Shown: in pieces, positions 2,541 through 27,489 of the stretch
Layout: each line of letters begins with the position of its first letter
How positions within the stretch are numbered: position 1 is the first letter of the stretch
NCBI GenBank assembly: GCA_023659975.1
Contig: JAGXOI010000003.1
Location: 7,633-39,632, forward strand
Reading direction: 5' to 3'
DNA from: Candidatus Aenigmarchaeota archaeon LH_S4
Lineage (GTDB): Archaea > Aenigmatarchaeota > Aenigmatarchaeia > QMZS01
DNA: 32,000 nucleotides
Program-made: the position numbers and the translations under genes
Notes under the pieces: model-generated
Database searches by the model: none
Told to the model about the DNA's origin: nothing
What the model saw: the letters and a program-made list of their open reading frames with translations, nothing else

Positions 2541-3647
2541 TTAACTCAAACTCTCTAAAATATCCTCAAGATTCTTCTTTGTTTTTATCCCGGTCTCGGA
2601 AAAATGTGTTCTCTTTCCTTCCAACTTTTCCAGTAGAATTACCATTTTCTTCGGCTGTTTTTTGTTTAATTTGCAAAGTTTGTGAATATCGAAATAGAGG
2701 GGAAAATTTTGCTCATCTCTAACTCTTCTTATTAAACTACTTATATGAGTACCTGTTTCTTTGACTTTTGGAGGCAAAATTTTATCTATCTCTGTCGAAC
2801 CTCCTATTTCTTTTAAAATTTGATTACAAAATTCTTTAGAAGCAAAATTTCCAAGATAAATTTCCTGGATTAAATTTGTTTTTCTTCCACAAAACTCACA
2901 TTTCTCAGAAATTCCCTCTTTTCTCCAACCACATTTTTGGCAGTAAGAGAAATAACTAAATTGTTTTAATAATTTATCTGCCCTGCCAGCACCCCTCTCA
3001 ATTTTTCCAAAGATTCTGAAATAGTGCCTTTGATAATAAGAGAAAATTGGTTTAAATGCTAAATCATATTTTGCAAAGTTTCTAATTGCTGCAGAAATCA
3101 AGATTCTTAATCCAATTTCCTTTGAAAAATCTGTTCTCAAACTCTTGATTCCATATCTTCTTAGAGAAGTTAAGGGGGAAGTTCCACAGAGGGGTGCTGT
3201 GTCTGTTGCTGTAATTGCAACTGTCCCTCCTATTCTTATTGATTTTGCTGCAGAGTCAAGAAAATAAATTGGGGAACCAAAAGGGTCAATATCAATAAAA
3301 TCAAACCTCTCTTCAAGTACCAATTTATTTGCATCTTTGTTTTCTATTCTGACTTTTAATTTATTTAATTCTGCATTTTTTCTTGCAAATTCAACAACTC
3401 TTGGATTTTTATCATTTAAAACAACTTCTGAATCTTCCAATATAGAAGCATATCTCAAACCTCTAACTCCAGAAGCGCAAAACAAATCACAAATTTTCTT
3501 TGGTTTCAAAATTTTTACAATAACCTCAGACAAATCCCTGTCAAATTTCATCTCAGGATTATAAAAAACATCCATCCTCTTTGTTAATTTCTCTTCAACA
3601 GGAATTGATAATTTGATTTCCCTCTCCTTTATTGTTTGGAGTTTCAT
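2541..3647 (-). CDS. trm1: tRNA (guanine26-N2)-dimethyltransferase Trm1
   Basis: 368 aa. N-terminus VFYNPEMKFDRDLS and SAM-binding DLFCASGVRGLRYA. C-terminal Cys cluster (CQKCGW...CEFCG). Typical archaeal Trm1 layout. Confidence 0.85.
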   Translation of the reverse strand: MKLQTIKEREIKLSIPVEEKLTKRMDVFYNPEMKFDRDLSEVIVKILKPKKICDLFCASGVRGLRYASILEDSEVVLNDKNPRVVEFARKNAELNKLKVRIENKDANKLVLEERFDFIDIDPFGSPIYFLDSAAKSIRIGGTVAITATDTAPLCGTSPLTSLRRYGIKSLRTDFSKEIGLRILISAAIRNFAKYDLAFKPIFSYYQRHYFRIFGKIERGAGRADKLLKQFSYFSYCQKCGWRKEGISEKCEFCGRKTNLIQEIYLGNFASKEFCNQILKEIGGSTEIDKILPPKVKETGTHISSLIRRVRDEQNFPLYFDIHKLCKLNKKQPKKMVILLEKLEGKRTHFSETGIKTKKNLEDILESLS

Positions 3648-5226: not shown

Positions 5227-7593
5227 ATGGAAAATTTGCCGAAGAGACCTAATTTCAAGGAAATTGAGAATAGATGGAGAGATTTTTGGAAAAAAGAAAA
5301 AATATATAAATTTAATATAAATTCTAAAAAGAAAATATTTTCTATAGATGTTCCACCAATAACTCCTTCAGGAAAAATGCACATTGGACATGTAATGAGT
5401 TATACACATTTTGAATATATTGCAAGGTACAAAAGAATGCAAGGTTTTGAAGTATTTTTTCCAGCCTGCTTTGATGATAATGGTTTGCCAACTGAAAAAT
5501 ATGTTGAGGAGACCAAAAAAGTGTCCAAAGCCACGGTTGAAAGAAACAAATTCAGGGAGCTATGTTTCAACTCTGCAACAGAACTTGAAAAAGAATATAG
5601 CAAAATTTTTGAGGTTTTGGGATTTTCCTGGAATAATGATTTGTTGTATAGAACAATTAATTCTTTTTGTCAGAAGCAGGCTCAAAGATCTTTTATTGAT
5701 TTGTATAAAAAAGGTGAAATTTATAGAGAGGAAGAGCCGACAATATGGTGCCCTTTTCATCAGACAGCTTTAGCACAGGCAGAAGTGGATGATTTGGAGA
5801 GAAGAACTACTCTTAATTATTTGACTTTTGAAGTAGAGGATGGAGATAAAATAGAGATAGCAACAACAAGACCAGAATTTCTACCAGCTTGTGTTGGGAT
5901 AGCAGTTCATCCAGAAAAATATAAAGTGGGTAGGGAAGCGACAGTTCCTATTTTTGGCCAAAAGGTTAAAATTTTCAGGGATGAAAGAGTTGACCCTGAA
6001 TTCGGCACAGGAGCGGTGATGATTTGTACATTTGGTGATAAGACAGATATTGAGTGGTGGAAAGCATATAATCTTCCGCTTAAAATCTGCATTACGAAGG
6101 AGGGGAAAATGAATGAATTGGCAAAAGAGTATGGGGGGATGACAATAGAAGAAGCAAGAAAAAAGATAATTGATGATTTGAAAGAAAAAAACATTTTATA
6201 TAAACAAGAAGACTTAAAACAAAGGGTTGGAGTTTGCTGGAGATGCAAAACGCCAATTGAGTTTATAGTTACAAAACAATGGTTTGTTAAAGTTTTGAAA
6301 CACAAAGAGAAACTTATAGAACTGGGCAGAAAATTAAACTGGTATCCAGCATTTTACAGAAAGAGGTATGAGGATTGGGTAAATAATCTAAAGTGGGATT
6401 GGGCTATCTCAAGGCAGAGATATTATGGGATTCCTTTTCCTGTTTGGTATTGCAAAAACTGTGGAGAAGTTGTTTTAGCAGATGATAAAGAGTTACCAGT
6501 AGACCCAACCAAAAACAAACCAAAAAAATGTCCGCTATGTAACTCAAAAGAATTTATTCCTGAATTAGATGTTTTTGATACTTGGTTTACTTCTTCTATT
6601 ACACCCCTAATTAATTCAAAATGGAAAGAAGACGAAGCTTTTTTCAAGGAATTGTTTCCAATGAGTTTAAGACCAAATGGCCATGACATAATTAGAAGTT
6701 GGACTTTTTACACAATTTTAAAATCTTATTTACATTTAGGTAAACTTCCGTGGAAGGATGTAATGATTTCAGGTCATGGTCTGGACCCAAAAGGAAAGAA
6801 AATGAGTAAATCACTTGGAAATATTGTTGAACCTTTTGATATCATTAACAAGTATGGTGCAGATGCCATAAGGTTATGGGCAACAACAGCTAAAGTTGGT
6901 GAAGACTTACCTTTTAGGGAAGAAGATTTGAAACATAATAAGGATATTTTAATTAAGTTGTGGAATGCTTCAAGATTTATCCATCCAAACACTGAAAAAT
7001 TAGAGAAACCAGAATTAACTTTAATTGATAAATGGATTCTAACAAGATTTTCTCAGGTTGTTGAAAATTATCACAAATCTTTTGATAAATATGAACTTAG
7101 TGAAGCAAGAAGAATTACAGAAATGTTTTTTAAACATGAGTTCTGCGATTTTTATCTTGAGATGGTCAAGTACAGGATTTATAGGGATAATGATAAATTA
7201 AGTGCCAAATGGACTTTATATGAATTGTTCCTTGGAATTATTAAGTTATTCGCCCCATTTATTCCTTATATTACAGAAGAGATTTATCAAAAATTATTTA
7301 AAAAAACAGAGAAAAATTTAAGTATTCATCTATCTTCTCTTCCAGAAAAAATAATTGAAGATGAAGAGAGTCTAAAAATTGGAGAGTTGCTGAAAGATGT
7401 AACTTCAGAAGTCCGCAAATGGAAAATCTCAAATAAGTTATCTCTTGGAAAACAAATTACCAAAATAGAGATAACAGCAAAAAAGGAAGAAATTGAGAAA
7501 TTAAAACTGGTTCTGGATGACATAAAAGGAACAAACAGAGTTAAGGAAGTCGTGTTCAAAGAGGGAGAATTTGGAGTTAATTGTGGGATTTGA
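5227..7593 (+). CDS. valS: Valine--tRNA ligase (class Ia)
   Basis: HIGH-type motif PSGKMHIGH and KMSKS motif KMSKSLGN. CP1/editing signatures IATTRPEFLPACVGIAVHPE and GTGAVMICTFGD. FDDNGLPTE follows the catalytic-core start. 788 aa. Confidence 0.8.
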   Translation: MENLPKRPNFKEIENRWRDFWKKEKIYKFNINSKKKIFSIDVPPITPSGKMHIGHVMSYTHFEYIARYKRMQGFEVFFPACFDDNGLPTEKYVEETKKVSKATVERNKFRELCFNSATELEKEYSKIFEVLGFSWNNDLLYRTINSFCQKQAQRSFIDLYKKGEIYREEEPTIWCPFHQTALAQAEVDDLERRTTLNYLTFEVEDGDKIEIATTRPEFLPACVGIAVHPEKYKVGREATVPIFGQKVKIFRDERVDPEFGTGAVMICTFGDKTDIEWWKAYNLPLKICITKEGKMNELAKEYGGMTIEEARKKIIDDLKEKNILYKQEDLKQRVGVCWRCKTPIEFIVTKQWFVKVLKHKEKLIELGRKLNWYPAFYRKRYEDWVNNLKWDWAISRQRYYGIPFPVWYCKNCGEVVLADDKELPVDPTKNKPKKCPLCNSKEFIPELDVFDTWFTSSITPLINSKWKEDEAFFKELFPMSLRPNGHDIIRSWTFYTILKSYLHLGKLPWKDVMISGHGLDPKGKKMSKSLGNIVEPFDIINKYGADAIRLWATTAKVGEDLPFREEDLKHNKDILIKLWNASRFIHPNTEKLEKPELTLIDKWILTRFSQVVENYHKSFDKYELSEARRITEMFFKHEFCDFYLEMVKYRIYRDNDKLSAKWTLYELFLGIIKLFAPFIPYITEEIYQKLFKKTEKNLSIHLSSLPEKIIEDEESLKIGELLKDVTSEVRKWKISNKLSLGKQITKIEITAKKEEIEKLKLVLDDIKGTNRVKEVVFKEGEFGVNCGI

Positions 7594-7631
7594 TAAATTC
7601 CTGCTAAAACTTAAATTTTTTAACTAATTTT

Positions 7632-10607
7632 ATGCTTTACAATCCAAAGGAAGTAGAGGAAAAAATCCTGAAAAAATGGGAAGAAGAGGAAACTTATAAA
7701 AAAGTTAGAGAGAGAGGAAAAGAAAAGTTCTATTTTTGTGATGGCCCTCCCTATGCTTCAGGATTTCTGCACTTGGGACAAACTCTGAATTATAGTTTAA
7801 AAGATTCTTGGATAAGGGTACTTAGATTAAAAGGATACAAAGTCTTTGACAGGCAGGGCTATGATACTCATGGAACTCCAATAGAAGTAAAAGTAGAAAA
7901 AGCTCTAGGATTTACTTCAAAAAAAGATATTGAAAGAGGGGGATTAAAAAACTTTATTTCGAAGTGCAAAGAATTTGCAACAAAAAACATTTCAAAGCAG
8001 AAAGAGCAGTTAAAAGATATAGGAGTATGGATGGATTTGGAAAATCCCTATCTTACTTTTTCAGATGATTTCATCTTAGCAATTTGGCGGACATTTAAAA
8101 AAGCAGAGGAAAAAGGTTTGCTATATAAGGGTGTTTATCCAGTATACTCTTGCCCAAGATGTGAGACAGTTGTTGCATATAATGAGATTGAATATAAAAA
8201 TATTGAGGATATTGCTATTTATGTATTAATAAAACTAAGGGGGAAAGATGAATATTTAGTTATATGGACAACAACCCCCTGGACTTTACCAGCAAATGTT
8301 GCGGTGGTAGTTAACCCAAATTTTCGGTATGTTGAGCTAGATTATAATAACAAAAAAATTATTGTTGCAAAAGAACTTTCTAAAAAATTTGAAAACTCAC
8401 AGATTATTAAGGAATTTTCAGGTAGAGAATTGGTTGGTTTGGAATATGAACCTATTTTGGAAGATAATAAGATTACTCCAATTATTGTTCCTTCAGAAAA
8501 ATTTGTAACTTTGGAAGAAGGAACAGGTCTTGTACACTGTGCTCCAGGACATGGAAAAGAGGATTTTGAGATTGGAAAAGAAAACAATTTAAAAGTAGTT
8601 TGTCCAGTTGGTCTTGATGGAAGATTCAAAGAAACAAAATATAAGGATAAACTCGTTTTTGATGCGAATAAAGAAATAGTTGATGAATTAAGGGAAAAAG
8701 GCGTACTTCTTAAAGAAGAAAAAATAAAACATGATTATCCAACCTGCTGGAGATGCCATACAAAATTAATAACTCTAACAATACCAGAATATTTTTTTGG
8801 TGCAACAAAGATTAGGGACAAATTACTTGAGGAAAATGAAAAAATTTACTGGAAACCTAATTGGGCAAAGGAAAGATTTAAGGACTGGCTTAAATCGATT
8901 GGAGATTGGCCTGTTTCAAGGCAGAGATATTGGGGCACTCCAGTTCCAATCTGGGAGTGTAATAAATGTGGGAAAATTGAGGTAATTGGCTCAAGAGAAG
9001 AACTTGAACAAAAATCAAAAAGAAAAGTTACAGAACTGCACAGACCAGAGATTGATGAAATAGAAATTCCGTGTGACTGTGGTGGAAGAAAGAAAAGAAT
9101 TCCAGATGTTTTTGATGTTTGGTTGGATTCTGGGGTGGCATCCTGGGCAAATTTTGATAACTCAAAGGAACTATTTGAAAAATTCTGGCCTGCTGATTTG
9201 GAAATTGAAGGAAGTGACCAGATAAGAGGGTGGTGGAATTCTCAATTAATTTTGTCAGTAATTGCCTTTGATAGAAGACCTTTTGAGACAATAATTTACC
9301 ATGGAATGATTCTTGACAATGTTGGAAAAAAAATGTCAAAGAGTATTGGAAATGTTGTGATGCCAGGGGATATTATTTCAAAATATGGAAGGGATGTTTT
9401 AAGATTGACCCTCTTATCTGAGGTTCCTTGGAAAGATATATTTTTTAGTTTTGATTTGGCAAAAACTGCTTTTAACAAACTGAACATTATATATAACTGT
9501 TTTCAATACTTCAAAAATTACAAAAAATCTGAAAATTACCCAATTAAATTACAAACCGAAGATAAGTGGATTATATCCAGACTAAATTCTGTAATTGAAA
9601 AATCTGATGAATATTTATCAAAAAAAGAATTGCATAATTATATAAGAGAAGTTGTGGATTTTTTGGTGGAGGATGTCAGCAGGGTTTATATTAAACTTGT
9701 GAGAGACAAGATTCTTGTAAGTTCTTCTGTATCCAAAGTTCTGGATGAAGTTCTCCAAAAAGTAAATATTCTTATTTCTCCATTTGCCCCATTTTTATCA
9801 GAAAGTCTTTATTTTGGAAATAAGAACAGCGTGTTTCTGGAAAATTGGCCCAAGGTTGAAAAAGAAAAAATAAATTCAGAATTAGAGGAAAAATTTGAAA
9901 TTGCTAAGGAAATATCAAAAGCAATGAATAGCGAGAGGCAAAAACATTCTGTTAGGTTAAGATTACCAATAAAAAAGGCAACTGTATTTGGCTCTACCAA
10001 AATAAAAGAAGTTATTGATGAGACCAAAGAGATTATAAAATCTCTTTCAAATTTAAAAGAAATTGAGTTTAAGGAAAGCGAAAAAGTTGAGATAAAACCT
10101 AATTTTGCAAAAATTGGAAAAAAATTCGGAGCAAGAACAAGTGAAGTGGCCAAGTTGATTTCAAAAATGAAACCAGAGGATTTAAAAGATGAAATTGAAC
10201 TTGGAGAATTTAAAATAAAAAGAGATGATTTGGTTGTAAGACAGAGGGGTGTTGAAGGAACTATTTTCTCCAAAGGTTATGTAACTTTGGATTTAACTGA
10301 GGATAAAGAATTGAAAGAAGAAAGATTTTTAAGAGAATTAATCAGAGAAATCCAGAAGGCGAGACAGGAAGAAAAATTAAATGTCCTTGATAGAATAACT
10401 TTGTTCCTTGAGGATAAAGAATTTATAAAAAAATTTGAAGACGAGTTAAAAAAAGAAGTAAGAGCAGAGAAAATTGTTTATGGGTTAGGAGAGAAAACAA
10501 TCATTCGCGAAGCGAATGGTGCACCATTTGCAAAGCAAATGCGTGAATTGGAAGCAAGTTATAAAGATTTGAATTTGGCGTTTGGGTTTGAGAGATATGT
10601 TTTGTAA
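7632..10607 (+). CDS. ileS: Isoleucine--tRNA ligase
   Basis: GPPYASGFLHLGQ, GYDTHGTPIEVKVEK, editing-domain WTTTPWTLPANVAVVV, and KMSKSIGN. 991 aa. The last ~47 codons belong to a duplicated segment (see repeat features). Confidence 0.9.
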   Translation: MLYNPKEVEEKILKKWEEEETYKKVRERGKEKFYFCDGPPYASGFLHLGQTLNYSLKDSWIRVLRLKGYKVFDRQGYDTHGTPIEVKVEKALGFTSKKDIERGGLKNFISKCKEFATKNISKQKEQLKDIGVWMDLENPYLTFSDDFILAIWRTFKKAEEKGLLYKGVYPVYSCPRCETVVAYNEIEYKNIEDIAIYVLIKLRGKDEYLVIWTTTPWTLPANVAVVVNPNFRYVELDYNNKKIIVAKELSKKFENSQIIKEFSGRELVGLEYEPILEDNKITPIIVPSEKFVTLEEGTGLVHCAPGHGKEDFEIGKENNLKVVCPVGLDGRFKETKYKDKLVFDANKEIVDELREKGVLLKEEKIKHDYPTCWRCHTKLITLTIPEYFFGATKIRDKLLEENEKIYWKPNWAKERFKDWLKSIGDWPVSRQRYWGTPVPIWECNKCGKIEVIGSREELEQKSKRKVTELHRPEIDEIEIPCDCGGRKKRIPDVFDVWLDSGVASWANFDNSKELFEKFWPADLEIEGSDQIRGWWNSQLILSVIAFDRRPFETIIYHGMILDNVGKKMSKSIGNVVMPGDIISKYGRDVLRLTLLSEVPWKDIFFSFDLAKTAFNKLNIIYNCFQYFKNYKKSENYPIKLQTEDKWIISRLNSVIEKSDEYLSKKELHNYIREVVDFLVEDVSRVYIKLVRDKILVSSSVSKVLDEVLQKVNILISPFAPFLSESLYFGNKNSVFLENWPKVEKEKINSELEEKFEIAKEISKAMNSERQKHSVRLRLPIKKATVFGSTKIKEVIDETKEIIKSLSNLKEIEFKESEKVEIKPNFAKIGKKFGARTSEVAKLISKMKPEDLKDEIELGEFKIKRDDLVVRQRGVEGTIFSKGYVTLDLTEDKELKEERFLRELIREIQKARQEEKLNVLDRITLFLEDKEFIKKFEDELKKEVRAEKIVYGLGEKTIIREANGAPFAKQMRELEASYKDLNLAFGFERYVL
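10461..10600. repeat. Direct repeat copy 1 = in-frame 3' end of ileS
   Basis: ~140 bp aligns with 11473-11612 (offset 1012 bp). It includes perfect runs of 52 nt (10497-10548) and 27 nt (10550-10576). The flanks are more diverged. Confidence 0.9.
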
Positions 10608-18390: not shown

Positions 18391-19332
18391 TTACTCAAAT
18401 TTATTAACAACCTTTGAATCCTTATTCTTTAGCAAAACAATTCTTGAATTCTCTGACCTATCTTCAAATTTGTAATTACTTTTTTTTGAAATTTCCAAAG
18501 CAAACTTTTTTATCTCTTCAAAATCAGGCATTTTTTCATCTCCCAATCTCTTTTTTGAGTAACCCAAACTCATAAACGCTTTTACTTCAACAAAATCAGG
18601 GTTCCCCTTTTCTATTAATTTTAGATATCCTTTTATATCTTCAGAGGAATTGTTAAGACCTTTAATTAAAGTTAATCTTAAAATTCTTCTACCTTTAAAA
18701 CTGTGCATTATTTCCAAACTTTCGTTGAATTTATTCCAAGCATTTTCTCCTATGGGTCTACATATTTCTAAAAATTTTTCTTCATTTGGGGCATTTAGAG
18801 AAATATACAACTGAAAATTTTTCTTTGGTTTTAACAAAGACAAAACATCTGGCCTTGTTCCATTAGTTACTAAAAAAACTGTTCTACCTTTATTTGTTAG
18901 ATAGTCGATCAATTCTATAAGTTTTGGATAAAGAGTTGGCTCCCCTGATAATGAAATTGCAAAATGGTTTGGCTCAAGAGCTTCTTTTAACTTTTTTTTG
19001 TCAGAGATACTCCCTCCAAACCCAGAAAGTAATTTTTTCCTCTGTTCAATTAGTTTTTCTACAATTTCCCCTGGTTTGTCAATTTCTTCTGGAATTTTGT
19101 TCCTAAAAAGTTCATTTGGAGACCAGCAAAATAAACATCTCAGGTTGCAGAAAACAACACTTGGTGAAAACTGCATACATCTGTGGCAGTCAATCCCATA
19201 AAATTTTTCTTTGTAGCAGAAACCCTCCCCTCTTAAACTTCTTTTTGTCCACTCACAAATCTGTACTCCTGAATGGTTAAATATTTTATAGTGTTTTTTT
19301 TCTAATTCTTTTCTCAATTTTTCATTTAACAT
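18391..19332 (-). CDS. taw1: tRNA 4-demethylwyosine synthase (radical SAM, Taw1/TYW1)
   Basis: Radical-SAM cluster CNLRCLFCW. An upstream Cys cluster (CYKEKFYGIDCHRC) for the second Fe-S site. Length and layout fit Taw1. Confidence 0.8.
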   Translation of the reverse strand: MLNEKLRKELEKKHYKIFNHSGVQICEWTKRSLRGEGFCYKEKFYGIDCHRCMQFSPSVVFCNLRCLFCWSPNELFRNKIPEEIDKPGEIVEKLIEQRKKLLSGFGGSISDKKKLKEALEPNHFAISLSGEPTLYPKLIELIDYLTNKGRTVFLVTNGTRPDVLSLLKPKKNFQLYISLNAPNEEKFLEICRPIGENAWNKFNESLEIMHSFKGRRILRLTLIKGLNNSSEDIKGYLKLIEKGNPDFVEVKAFMSLGYSKKRLGDEKMPDFEEIKKFALEISKKSNYKFEDRSENSRIVLLKNKDSKVVNKFE

Positions 19333-19372: not shown

Positions 19373-19981
19373 CTATTTCAATTTTTCTTCTTCTAATTTA
19401 AAACCTTTTTCTGTAATCTCAACAATCCAGAGTTTTTCTCCTCCAGAAGCCATATCTCTCTGCGTAGCACTTTTTATAGCCTCTCTTATCAGCTTTTTTC
19501 CCTGCTCAATTGTCATTCCTTCCCTAAAATCTTTTTCCAGGACTCCATAAACAAAGGGAGAACCTGAACCTGTAGAAACATAATTCTCTTTCATACAGGA
19601 ACCTGTTGGATCAAACGAGAATATATAAGATCCGGTTGAGTCTATTCCACCAATAATAATTTGTGTATAATAAGGGAACATTCTTCTTGAGTACATAATC
19701 TGGGATAACAAATGTGCTACAGCACTAATCTTCATTTCTTCATTCGTCTCCAGTTTGTGAAGTGAAATTTCGGCTTTCAAAATATTTATTAATTGCTGTG
19801 CATCACTTACCATTCCTGCAATTGTTATCCCAATTTTATCATCTATCTTAAAAACTTTCTGAACATCCTTGTTTACTATCATATTACCCATAGAAGCTTT
19901 GGATTCAGAGGCAAGTAAAATACCTTCTTTACAAACCATTCCTACTGTCGTTGTCCCTGTGTTTAGTAATTTACCTTCCAT
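19373..19981 (-). CDS. psmB: Proteasome subunit beta
   Basis: A short propeptide is followed by the active-site TTTVGMVCKEGILLASE. 202 aa. Confidence 0.9.
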   Translation of the reverse strand: MEGKLLNTGTTTVGMVCKEGILLASESKASMGNMIVNKDVQKVFKIDDKIGITIAGMVSDAQQLINILKAEISLHKLETNEEMKISAVAHLLSQIMYSRRMFPYYTQIIIGGIDSTGSYIFSFDPTGSCMKENYVSTGSGSPFVYGVLEKDFREGMTIEQGKKLIREAIKSATQRDMASGGEKLWIVEITEKGFKLEEEKLK

Positions 19982-20152
19982 AATATTTACTAAACTTTTA
20001 AATAGTTAAGGCTTTTATTGAACAGATAAAAAGGCTTAAAAAATGGTATGCACCTTTATAACTCTTTTATTTAATGCAAAAATCAAACTAACATATTTTT
20101 CCAAAGCATAGCAGTTAAATTAAATGGTTAATAAATTGCGGAAACTAATTAT

Positions 20153-20372
20153 GGGCTCGTGGTCCAGTGGCTAAGATTTCAATAGCAAACGTCGCGTTCA
20201 CAGGAGCTTTTCTTTCTTTAAGAAAAATAATTAAATAGTGGTGGTAATCTAAACTCTGAAATTCGCGAAGATCGAGAGTTCAATGCAACTTTTCTCAGGA
20301 AAAGTTTTTTCTCTGAAAAAACAAGAACTGCACTGAAATTGGTGCAGAAGAGGGGGAATCTCTCCGAGCCCA
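20153..20372 (+). tRNA. tRNA-Val: tRNA-Val(CAC) with three putative introns
   Basis: Exons 20153-20176, 20190-20202, 20263-20281 and 20356-20372 assemble into a 73-nt cloverleaf. Acceptor GGGCUCG/CGAGCCC, A73, D-stem GUCC/AGAC, anticodon stem UCGCG/CGCGA, loop UUCACAU, T-arm GAGAG-UUCGAAU-CUCUC. Introns: 13 nt (D-arm), 60 nt (canonical 37/38) and 74 nt (T-loop). Confidence 0.7.
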
Positions 20373-20469
20373 TCATTCAATATACAATCTAAAGGTTTTC
20401 CACAACAACTCTATTATTCTCCTACAGTATTCACATTTAACTCTAATTTTATTTTTAGTTTTTATTATT

Positions 20470-20991
20470 ATGTTAGATATTATAATTAATAGTTTTTGGT
20501 TGATTATTCCTGCTTATTGTGCTAACCTCTCCCCAGTTTTATTAAAAGGAAAATATCCAATAGATTTCAGAAAGAATTTTGTTGATGGATTTAGATTGTT
20601 TGGGGATGGAAAAACAATAGAGGGTCTCTTTGGGGGTGTTTTTTTCGGAATTTTTATAGGATTATTACTTATTTATCTACAGCCTTTTATAACTCAATTC
20701 TACGCTTTACATTTTCAGCACAATTTTTTGACAATCTTCTTATTAACCACCGGAGCAATTTTAGGAGATATAGTTGGTTCCTTTATTAAGAGGAGGTTTA
20801 GAATTAAGAGAGGAGATCCAACACCTATTTTGGATCAACTAGATTTTCTAATTTTGGCTTTAGTTATTGTTTCTATTATAATAGATTTAAAGTTGTCTTG
20901 GGTAATTTTCCTTGTAATAGTTACCCCTCTACTCCATTATTCTGCAAATATATGCGCTTTTCTACTGAAATTAAAGAGCAAACCTTGGTAA
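20470..20991 (+). CDS. carS: CDP-archaeol synthase (CarS, DUF46)
   Basis: IPAYCANLSPVLLKG..PIDF...DGFRLFGDGKTIEG matches the CarS N-terminal signature. 173 aa with several TM helices. Confidence 0.75.
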   Translation: MLDIIINSFWLIIPAYCANLSPVLLKGKYPIDFRKNFVDGFRLFGDGKTIEGLFGGVFFGIFIGLLLIYLQPFITQFYALHFQHNFLTIFLLTTGAILGDIVGSFIKRRFRIKRGDPTPILDQLDFLILALVIVSIIIDLKLSWVIFLVIVTPLLHYSANICAFLLKLKSKPW

Positions 20992-27246: not shown

Positions 27247-27489
27247 CTACTCCTGATAATTCTTAAATTCTCTAGAATCTTTTCCATCAATTGTAATTTT
27301 ATATGAGATACAGGAGCCTATTATTTGCCTGATTTTTGCATTAGCAGAATTCCCTGGAATTTCACTGTTTTTGGCAATTTCCTTTATTTTTTCTAGGGAT
27401 ATGTCTCCGACAATTTCTTCTTGTTTTTCTTTTTTTGCGAGTTTTTCCAGATTTGCTGCTTTTTTTACAAGAGCTGCAATTGTTCCCAT
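27247..27489 (-). CDS. Ribosomal protein L11 C-terminal-domain-like protein (no N-terminal domain)
   Basis: ALVKKAANLEKLAKKEKQEEIVGDISLEKIKEIAKNSEIPGNSANAKIRQIIGSCISYKITIDG parallels the L11 linker plus C-domain (LLKKAAGIEKGS..VGKITLEQV.EIAK.K..DL.A....A.K.I.GTA.SMGI.V.G). The ~65-aa NTD is absent. Confidence 0.4.
   Translation of the reverse strand: MGTIAALVKKAANLEKLAKKEKQEEIVGDISLEKIKEIAKNSEIPGNSANAKIRQIIGSCISYKITIDGKDSREFKNYQE

Follow-up and report, generated by a model that had tools for sequence, protein, structure and literature searches.

A candidate tRNA-Val(CAC) gene with three introns of the bulge-helix-bulge type in an Aenigmarchaeote

Can 220 nt of intergenic DNA, in which standard tools find no tRNA, be a tRNA gene, and where would its introns lie? 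This question is raised by a locus in the 32,000-nt stretch of DNA analysed in the present study (the window), which comes from the genome of an Aenigmarchaeote (DPANN) with a GC content of about 31%. The locus lies between the gene for a proteasome beta subunit (19373-19981, minus strand), by which the window was assigned to Candidatus Aenigmarchaeota, and that for CDP-archaeol synthase (CarS; 20470-20991, plus strand). The unspliced window gave no tRNA call in ARAGORN, with the intron option on or off, or in Rfam at the gathering or permissive E-value thresholds; the weak Rfam matches (drum, sR17 and others, E at least 0.14) were dismissed as noise. Gaps in the tRNA sets of DPANN genomes have been taken as a sign that disrupted tRNA genes go undetected there (PMC5829648). 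A sequence-only reading had assigned positions 20153-20372 to a tRNA-Val(CAC) gene carrying three inserts, in the D-arm, at the canonical position 37/38 and in the T-loop.

The gene and its orthologs

The 73-nt product obtained by removing the three inserts was called tRNA-Val(CAC) by ARAGORN, under the boundaries first proposed as well as those adopted below. The assignment of the 220 nt stands, and the presence of three inserts in one gene is borne out by both ARAGORN and the orthologs. The gene (20153-20372, plus strand; GGGCTCG...CGAGCCCA) extends from G1 to the discriminator A73, with no encoded CCA. Exon 1 (20153-20175, nt 1-23) provides the 5' strand of the acceptor stem, U8, the 5' strand of the D-stem, the D-loop and A22-G23. 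Exon 2 (20189-20202, nt 24-37) provides the remaining D-stem, G26, the 5' strand of the anticodon stem and the loop up to A37, including the anticodon CAC at 20199-20201. Exon 3 (20263-20284, nt 38-59) continues from U38 through the 3' strand of the anticodon stem, the variable loop and the 5' strand of the T-stem to UUCAAU of the T-loop, and exon 4 (20359-20372, nt 60-73) supplies U60, the 3' strands of the T-stem and acceptor stem, and A73; all four exons are on the plus strand. The spliced product has the conserved tertiary positions U8, A14, G18-G19, U33, U54-U55-C56, A58 and A73. The claim that the cloverleaf arises only if exactly the originally named segments are removed was too strict, since the 13-nt insert can be placed in two ways and the 74-nt insert in four.

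The same gene was found in L001 (contig JAGXOK010000006.1), which is about 98% identical to the window, as well as in seven syntenic contigs that have diverged further (L072, L128, L129, L131, L132, L134 and L137); in these eight related Aenigmarchaeota contigs, the ortholog adjoins the genes for CarS and Topo I. L072 was found by scanning metagenomes with the 5' exon and shares the synteny of CarS, Topo I, UbiA and L7Ae with the window at 69-79% amino-acid identity, and the other six were reached through Topo I homologs at 65-79% identity. The synteny on the proteasome side was absent in L002, and in L130, L133, L135, L136, L138 and L139 the tRNA-Val gene was not at the expected place or there was too little flanking sequence. 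The spliced products of all nine loci were called tRNA-Val(CAC). Exon 1 of the window is identical to that of L001 and differs from those of L072, L128 and L129 by one change (C13U). Between the window and L072, the exons are identical at 72 of 73 positions, the sole difference being C13 in the window and U13 in L072, and the 13-nt insert is identical at 12 of 13 positions; the corresponding identities are 60% for intron 2, 49% for intron 3, 63% for the 5' flank and 48% for the 3' flank.

Moreover, when the five different mature sequences were aligned, the cloverleaf pairs were formed in 99% of the cells, and compensatory changes on both sides were observed at eight pairs. The covariation score was reached by none of 500 shuffles, and pairing was only 32-53% in a control in which the partners were slid by one to three columns. 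A chance origin is therefore ruled out, since the gene is shared by L001 and seven syntenic contigs, its exons are kept and its stems covary. It is very likely that the tRNA-Val gene at 20153-20372 is real, and only a little less so that it carries three introns. With similarly good confidence, we regard it as a functional tRNA-Val(CAC) gene with a precursor of about 220 nt and introns of the bulge-helix-bulge (BHB) type at 23/24, 37/38 and 59/60. A redundant tRNA-Val(CAC) gene lacking introns is possible elsewhere in the genome. In the window itself, a heuristic for acceptor and T-arms yielded no other credible hidden tRNA, and the introns contain no C box.

Two spurious minus-strand ORFs overlie the tRNA gene (20218-20376, 52 aa; 20249-20380, 43 aa). 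The protein-coding alternative was rejected because these ORFs are not conserved, the intron lengths of the orthologs differing by non-multiples of three. With the gene overlooked by tRNA finders, both ORFs could enter automated annotations as hypothetical proteins.

Several further features of the surroundings were observed. The tetranucleotide TTAT lies directly upstream of tRNA position 1 (window 20149-20152) in all nine loci, with the rest of the upstream sequence diverged, and may be a leader or initiation element; TATA-like AT-rich runs are found about 25-40 nt upstream of the gene. On the other side, a cysteine-rich (Zn-ribbon-like) ORF of 47-53 aa lies between CarS and the tRNA gene in most orthologous loci (L128:5559-5708, L130:5755-5898, L131:3935-4096 and L132:4984-5142); it appears to be missing from the window and L001, where the spacer (window 20373-20469) is only 97 nt long. 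Genes related to tRNA are abundant in the window (2541-3647, 5227-10607 and 18391-19332) and include those for Trm1 (m2,2G methyltransferase) and two tandem class-I aminoacyl-tRNA synthetases of the Ile/Leu/Val/Met group, and a gene for a TYW1-like wyosine radical-SAM enzyme lies near the tRNA-Val gene. Also, an 80-aa ORF at 27247-27489 (minus strand) matches only the C-terminal RNA-binding domain of L11 (PF00298, E = 1.2e-8). It has no upstream room for the N-terminal domain of L11, since an RpoL-like gene comes next on the opposite strand, and it could be either a stand-alone protein of this domain or a truncated gene.

Junction motifs and intron boundaries

The boundaries were set by a BHB rule that requires, per strand, an outer helix, a 4-bp helix H and a 3-nt bulge with the cut between its second and third nucleotides; the rule was calibrated on the canonical introns and reproduces 37/38 in every ortholog with that intron. 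Intron 2 (20203-20262, plus strand, 60 nt) lies at the canonical position 37/38, just where the sequence-only reading had placed it, and forms a strict hBHBh' motif. Its outer helix h is the 5-bp anticodon stem, H pairs UUCA (20197-20200) with UGAA (20257-20260), the bulges are CA/G and AU/U (the slash marks the cut), and the inner helix h' pairs GAG (20204-20206) with CUC (20254-20256). Intron 2 of L072 has another sequence and the same motif, with a compensatory change from G-C to A-U in h', and all orthologs with a canonical intron show a strict 3-4-3 BHB there. Introns 2 and 3 drift to the extent given above while H, the bulges and h' are kept. When relaxed forms are included, a motif is found at each of the three junctions, strict at 37/38, BHL-like at 23/24 and relaxed at 59/60. 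The expectation of such folds at three junctions was thus correct for these positions, but none is found in any ortholog at 56/57, where the third intron had originally been put.

Intron 1 (ATTTCAATAGCAA, plus strand, 13 nt) is best written at 20176-20188 (position 23/24) according to the BHB rule; the earlier placement at 20177-20189 gives an identical spliced product. The D-arm is uninterrupted at this site in L131, L132, L134 and L137, and therefore the 13 nt are an insertion, as had been proposed, and only the boundary is better drawn differently. Helix H pairs GCUA (20170-20173) with UAGC (20183-20186) perfectly, and the 3' bulge consists of A20187, A20188 and, after the cut, A20189. The 5' site, AG/A, lies within a hairpin loop, and the motif is a minimal BHB resembling a BHL; h' is essentially absent (1 bp), and the outer helix comprises one G-C and two G-U pairs. 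An alternative is that the insert is no intron and that the mature tRNA keeps it and has an abnormal or enlarged D-arm, in favour of which its very short length, the lack of h', the weak outer helix and its near invariance (12 of 13 nt fixed in five sequences) may be cited. However, a retained insert separates C25 from A22-A24, so that a normal D-stem cannot form, and its removal yields an exact alignment to the uninterrupted D-arms of the four orthologs named above. The invariance is itself patterned, since the fixed positions coincide exactly with the UAGC strand of H, the bulge AA and the flanks of the loop, and the sole variable one (20180; C, G or A) is the apex of the loop, which fits constraint from endonuclease recognition. 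Retention of the insert is most improbable, and the 13 nt are treated here as an intron at 23/24.

The position of the third insert requires a closer comparison. The existence of a 74-nt intron in the T-loop is upheld, but its original placement at 20282-20355 (56/57) is superseded by 20285-20358 (59/60, plus strand), 3 nt to the right. The insert can be placed at 56/57, 57/58, 58/59 or 59/60, and each placement leaves a valid 7-nt T-loop. Among these, 59/60 is the only register that combines the T-stem, an AA/U bulge and helix H in the window, L001 and L072, and the same register fits L134 and L137. The resulting motif is a relaxed hBH, in which the 5-bp T-stem serves as h and the 3' bulge is formed by A20357, A20358 and, after the cut, U20359; the 5' site AU/G lacks a clear h', and the body of the intron folds into three hairpins. 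A clean BHB at 57/58 or 58/59 was sought and fails, as it does at 56/57. In addition, introns at 59/60 that obey the same rule were found in unrelated metagenomic tRNA-Val genes (L012, L048 and L069).

The quality of helix H at 59/60 forms a graded series, with UUCA as the 5' strand. It is paired with UGAA in L134 (four Watson-Crick pairs), with UGGA in L072, L128, L129 and L137 (three Watson-Crick pairs and one G-U), with GGGA in L001 (two Watson-Crick pairs, one G-U and one mismatch) and with GGGG in the window (20279-20282 with 20353-20356; one G-C, two G-U and one A-G mismatch). Thus, three of the four pairs are present in the window and all four in L072, L134 and L137. The unconstrained minimum free energy (MFE) structure of L134 is exactly the BHB at 59/60, and the change G20356A from the window to L001 converts a G-U pair of H to A-U. 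The hexamer TTCAAT is kept in the window and L001 and in the genes of the L072 group, although the intron bodies are unrelated. Because only 59/60 gives a bulge-helix motif and TTCAAT is conserved, we set intron 3 at 20285-20358.

The alternative boundary at 56/57, with a mature T-loop of UUCGAAU, was weighed against this placement. Its product is likewise a valid tRNA-Val in ARAGORN, and the UUCGAAU T-loop is very common, being present in L131 and in many loci from the 5'-exon scan. In addition, the MFE structure of the window T-arm lengthens the T-stem across the insert (U54-A, U55-A and C56-G), and the fold constrained to the BHB is 3.9 kcal/mol worse than this alternative pairing of UUC with GAA. 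However, L001, L072 and L134 have AAA at this place and do not keep the UUC/GAA pairing, and 56/57 shows neither a BHB nor a relaxed BHB, with no more than one of the four H pairs in the window and L001 and no outer helix in any sequence. Moreover, the AAU with which such an intron would begin is conserved in the window and L001 and in the L072 group while the intron otherwise diverges, which fits AAU as exon. An intron at 56/57 is accordingly improbable, and it is likely that the T-loop intron lies at 59/60. The mature T-loop is predicted to be UUCAAUU, which also occurs in other archaeal tRNA-Val genes from the 5'-exon scan, e.g. L013 and L023. In spliced RNA, the junction expected for 59/60 is GUUCAAU/UCUCUC(C), and that for 56/57 is GUUC/GAAUCUCUC, also written GUUC/GAAUCUCUCC.

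The weak helix of the window also bears on the question of whether this copy is decaying or non-functional, with missplicing at a degenerate T-loop motif and with GUG read by another tRNA, e.g. Val-UAC. Consistent with decay, helix H of the window is poor (in order, G-U, G-U, G-C and a mismatch) and without h', and its fold lies above the alternative by the energy given in the previous paragraph. The C13-A22 mismatch, which had been correctly noted from the sequence, is limited to the lineage of the window and L001, the other orthologs having U13-A22 or U13-G22, and intron 3 is gaining inserts, as seen from a 27-nt difference between the window and L001. Against decay, C13 is the only exon position changed relative to L072, at a divergence of 40-50% in the introns and flanks; the 3' bulge AA/U beside the T-stem is intact in the window, and in ARMAN-2, hBH and BHL motifs in which one side is defective have been proven to serve as substrates (PMC3239211). 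A decaying copy is thus very improbable, and we retain the reading as a functional gene.

The difference between the window and L001 in intron 3 consists of an extra 27 nt (GGTTATTCTATCAAAGATAGAACATCT; L001:3652-3678, minus strand), which follow window position 20304 and form a hairpin of their own. L001 also carries T20334C and G20356A, and it otherwise matches the window fully in the exons and in about 100 nt of the flanks. From this comparison, intron 3 seems to grow by hairpin insertion. Nested or tandem introns within the 74 nt were considered, e.g. an AGUU/AACU motif removing 20283-20331; this candidate was discarded because T20334C in L001 breaks the outer pair and the leftover is not tRNA-like.

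Intron turnover and the predicted splicing pathway

The orthologs differ in their intron sets. The window, L001, L072, L128 and L129 carry introns at 23/24, 37/38 and 59/60; L134 carries those at 37/38 and 59/60, L131 those at 15/16 and 37/38, and L132 that at 37/38 only. In L137, introns are present at 15/16 and 59/60 and the canonical intron is lacking. These differing combinations of four sites show that intron turnover is fast. The gene of L137 (L137:3029-3133, minus strand) is just 105 nt long, with 16-nt introns at both positions and an uninterrupted anticodon loop, and so the supposedly ancestral canonical intron is absent from a gene that has two non-canonical ones. A gene for a DDE_Tnp_1 transposase (L137:3344-4744) lies between the tRNA-Val and proteasome genes of this contig, i.e. 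a mobile element has inserted beside the tRNA locus. The idea that the introns themselves are mobile was set aside, as neither the window nor any of the fetched loci contains a second copy of them.

T-loop inserts were also observed in tRNA genes of several unrelated low-GC metagenomic contigs matched by the 5'-exon pattern (L012, L048/L127, L069, L095 and L035, in the last of these in the third tRNA of the segment). The 59/60 register was checked for L012, L048 and L069, and some of these contigs also have a canonical intron. In L086/L122, a long insertion is present shortly after position 28. Among environmental archaea, disrupted tRNA-Val genes seem to be frequent.

Judging from the junction motifs and the literature, the introns of the precursor would be excised by EndA, most likely within the standard archaeal pathway. 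EndA would cut the 3-nt bulges flanking the 4-bp helix at each junction, whether BHB or relaxed BHB, and a ligase of the RtcB type would then join the four exons into the 73-nt tRNA with the T-loop UUCAAUU. The CCA would be added after splicing, as it is not encoded. The BHL-like D-arm intron and the degenerate helix at 59/60 suggest that the EndA of this lineage tolerates relaxed motifs, as the sequence-only reading had reasonably supposed. No EndA domain (PF01974/PF02778) was found among the 30 window ORFs scanned, and tblastn with the EndA of M. jannaschii (query sequence verified against PDB 1A79) gave no match in any of the fetched loci. In a database search with the same query, the best 120 matches listed comprised only methanogen relatives.

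Herein, we also raise a bolder proposal, which is doubtful at present, namely that this family of Aenigmarchaeota has an unusually permissive EndA that drives exceptionally fast intron turnover. If true, the enzyme accepts a BHL intron of 13 nt whose outer and inner helices are almost absent, as well as a 59/60 junction with a single Watson-Crick pair in its central helix. The turnover concerns four sites (15/16, 23/24, 37/38 and 59/60), at which introns are gained or lost among orthologs with Topo I identities of 67-79%.

Relation to known disrupted tRNA genes

The gene belongs to a known class, that of archaeal tRNA genes with several BHB-spliced introns, and involves no new mechanism. Genes of this kind with three introns were reportedly described in Thermoproteales by Sugahara et al. 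in 2008. The present gene resembles those of Thermoproteales and Crenarchaeota in its three BHB-type introns (canonical, D-arm and T-arm) and in the rapid gain and loss of introns among relatives. The hosts differ, however, in that the former are GC-richer hyperthermophiles of the TACK group with an (alpha-beta)2 EndA bearing a Crenarchaea-specific loop, whereas the present host is an AT-rich member of DPANN.

Archaeal tRNAs carry from one to a maximum of three introns (PMC3239211). The closest likeness for intron 3 is the pre-tRNA-Cys(GCA) of ARMAN-2 (Ca. Micrarchaeum), which also belongs to a DPANN host, and in which the intron also lies between T-loop nt 59 and 60, with a relaxed motif, the T-stem as outer helix, one good bulge and the other site in a loop. 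This hBH intron was cleaved in vitro by the EndA of ARMAN-2 (Fujishima et al. 2011, PMC3239211). The two cases differ in phylum, in the tRNA concerned and in the single intron of the ARMAN-2 gene; moreover, cleavage by an epsilon2 EndA has been demonstrated there, whereas the motifs are here read from sequence and the central helix is weaker in the window. For the combination of a strict canonical BHB with a relaxed intron in the D-region, the pre-tRNA-Glu(UUC) of Methanopyrus kandleri is comparable (Kaneta et al. 2018, PMC5829648), although it comes from a euryarchaeon and has two introns only (canonical and a D-loop HBh'), and its characterised EndA is inefficient on the relaxed intron (PMC5829648).

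The BHB, hBH, HBh' and BHL motifs have been defined previously, and disrupted tRNAs, including those of DPANN, have been connected with the specificity loops of EndA (PMC5829648). In the same work, many disrupted and multi-intron tRNAs were reported in DPANN lineages, and alpha4-type EndAs with an L3 loop were tied to increased tRNA gene disruption in DPANN, which is the enzymatic context predicted here (PMC5829648). The earlier view hence overstated how unusual such introns are for a reduced, AT-rich genome, since the host belongs to DPANN, in which lineages with such introns are already known (PMC5829648, PMC3239211). Aenigmarchaeota are not among the genomes analysed in that set (PMC5829648), and our literature search found no paper on tRNA introns in Aenigmarchaeota specifically.

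The present results have several consequences. First, three-intron tRNAs and relaxed introns at 59/60 are extended to another DPANN phylum. Second, ARAGORN was run on 12 Aenigmarchaeota loci and reported no tRNA in any of them, and since the gene is missed by routine tools, the tRNA complements and completeness estimates of metagenome-assembled genomes (MAGs) of Aenigmarchaeota are probably understated. Third, the five intron combinations found in one syntenic gene provide a natural series on the gain and loss of introns and on the substrate limits of EndA.
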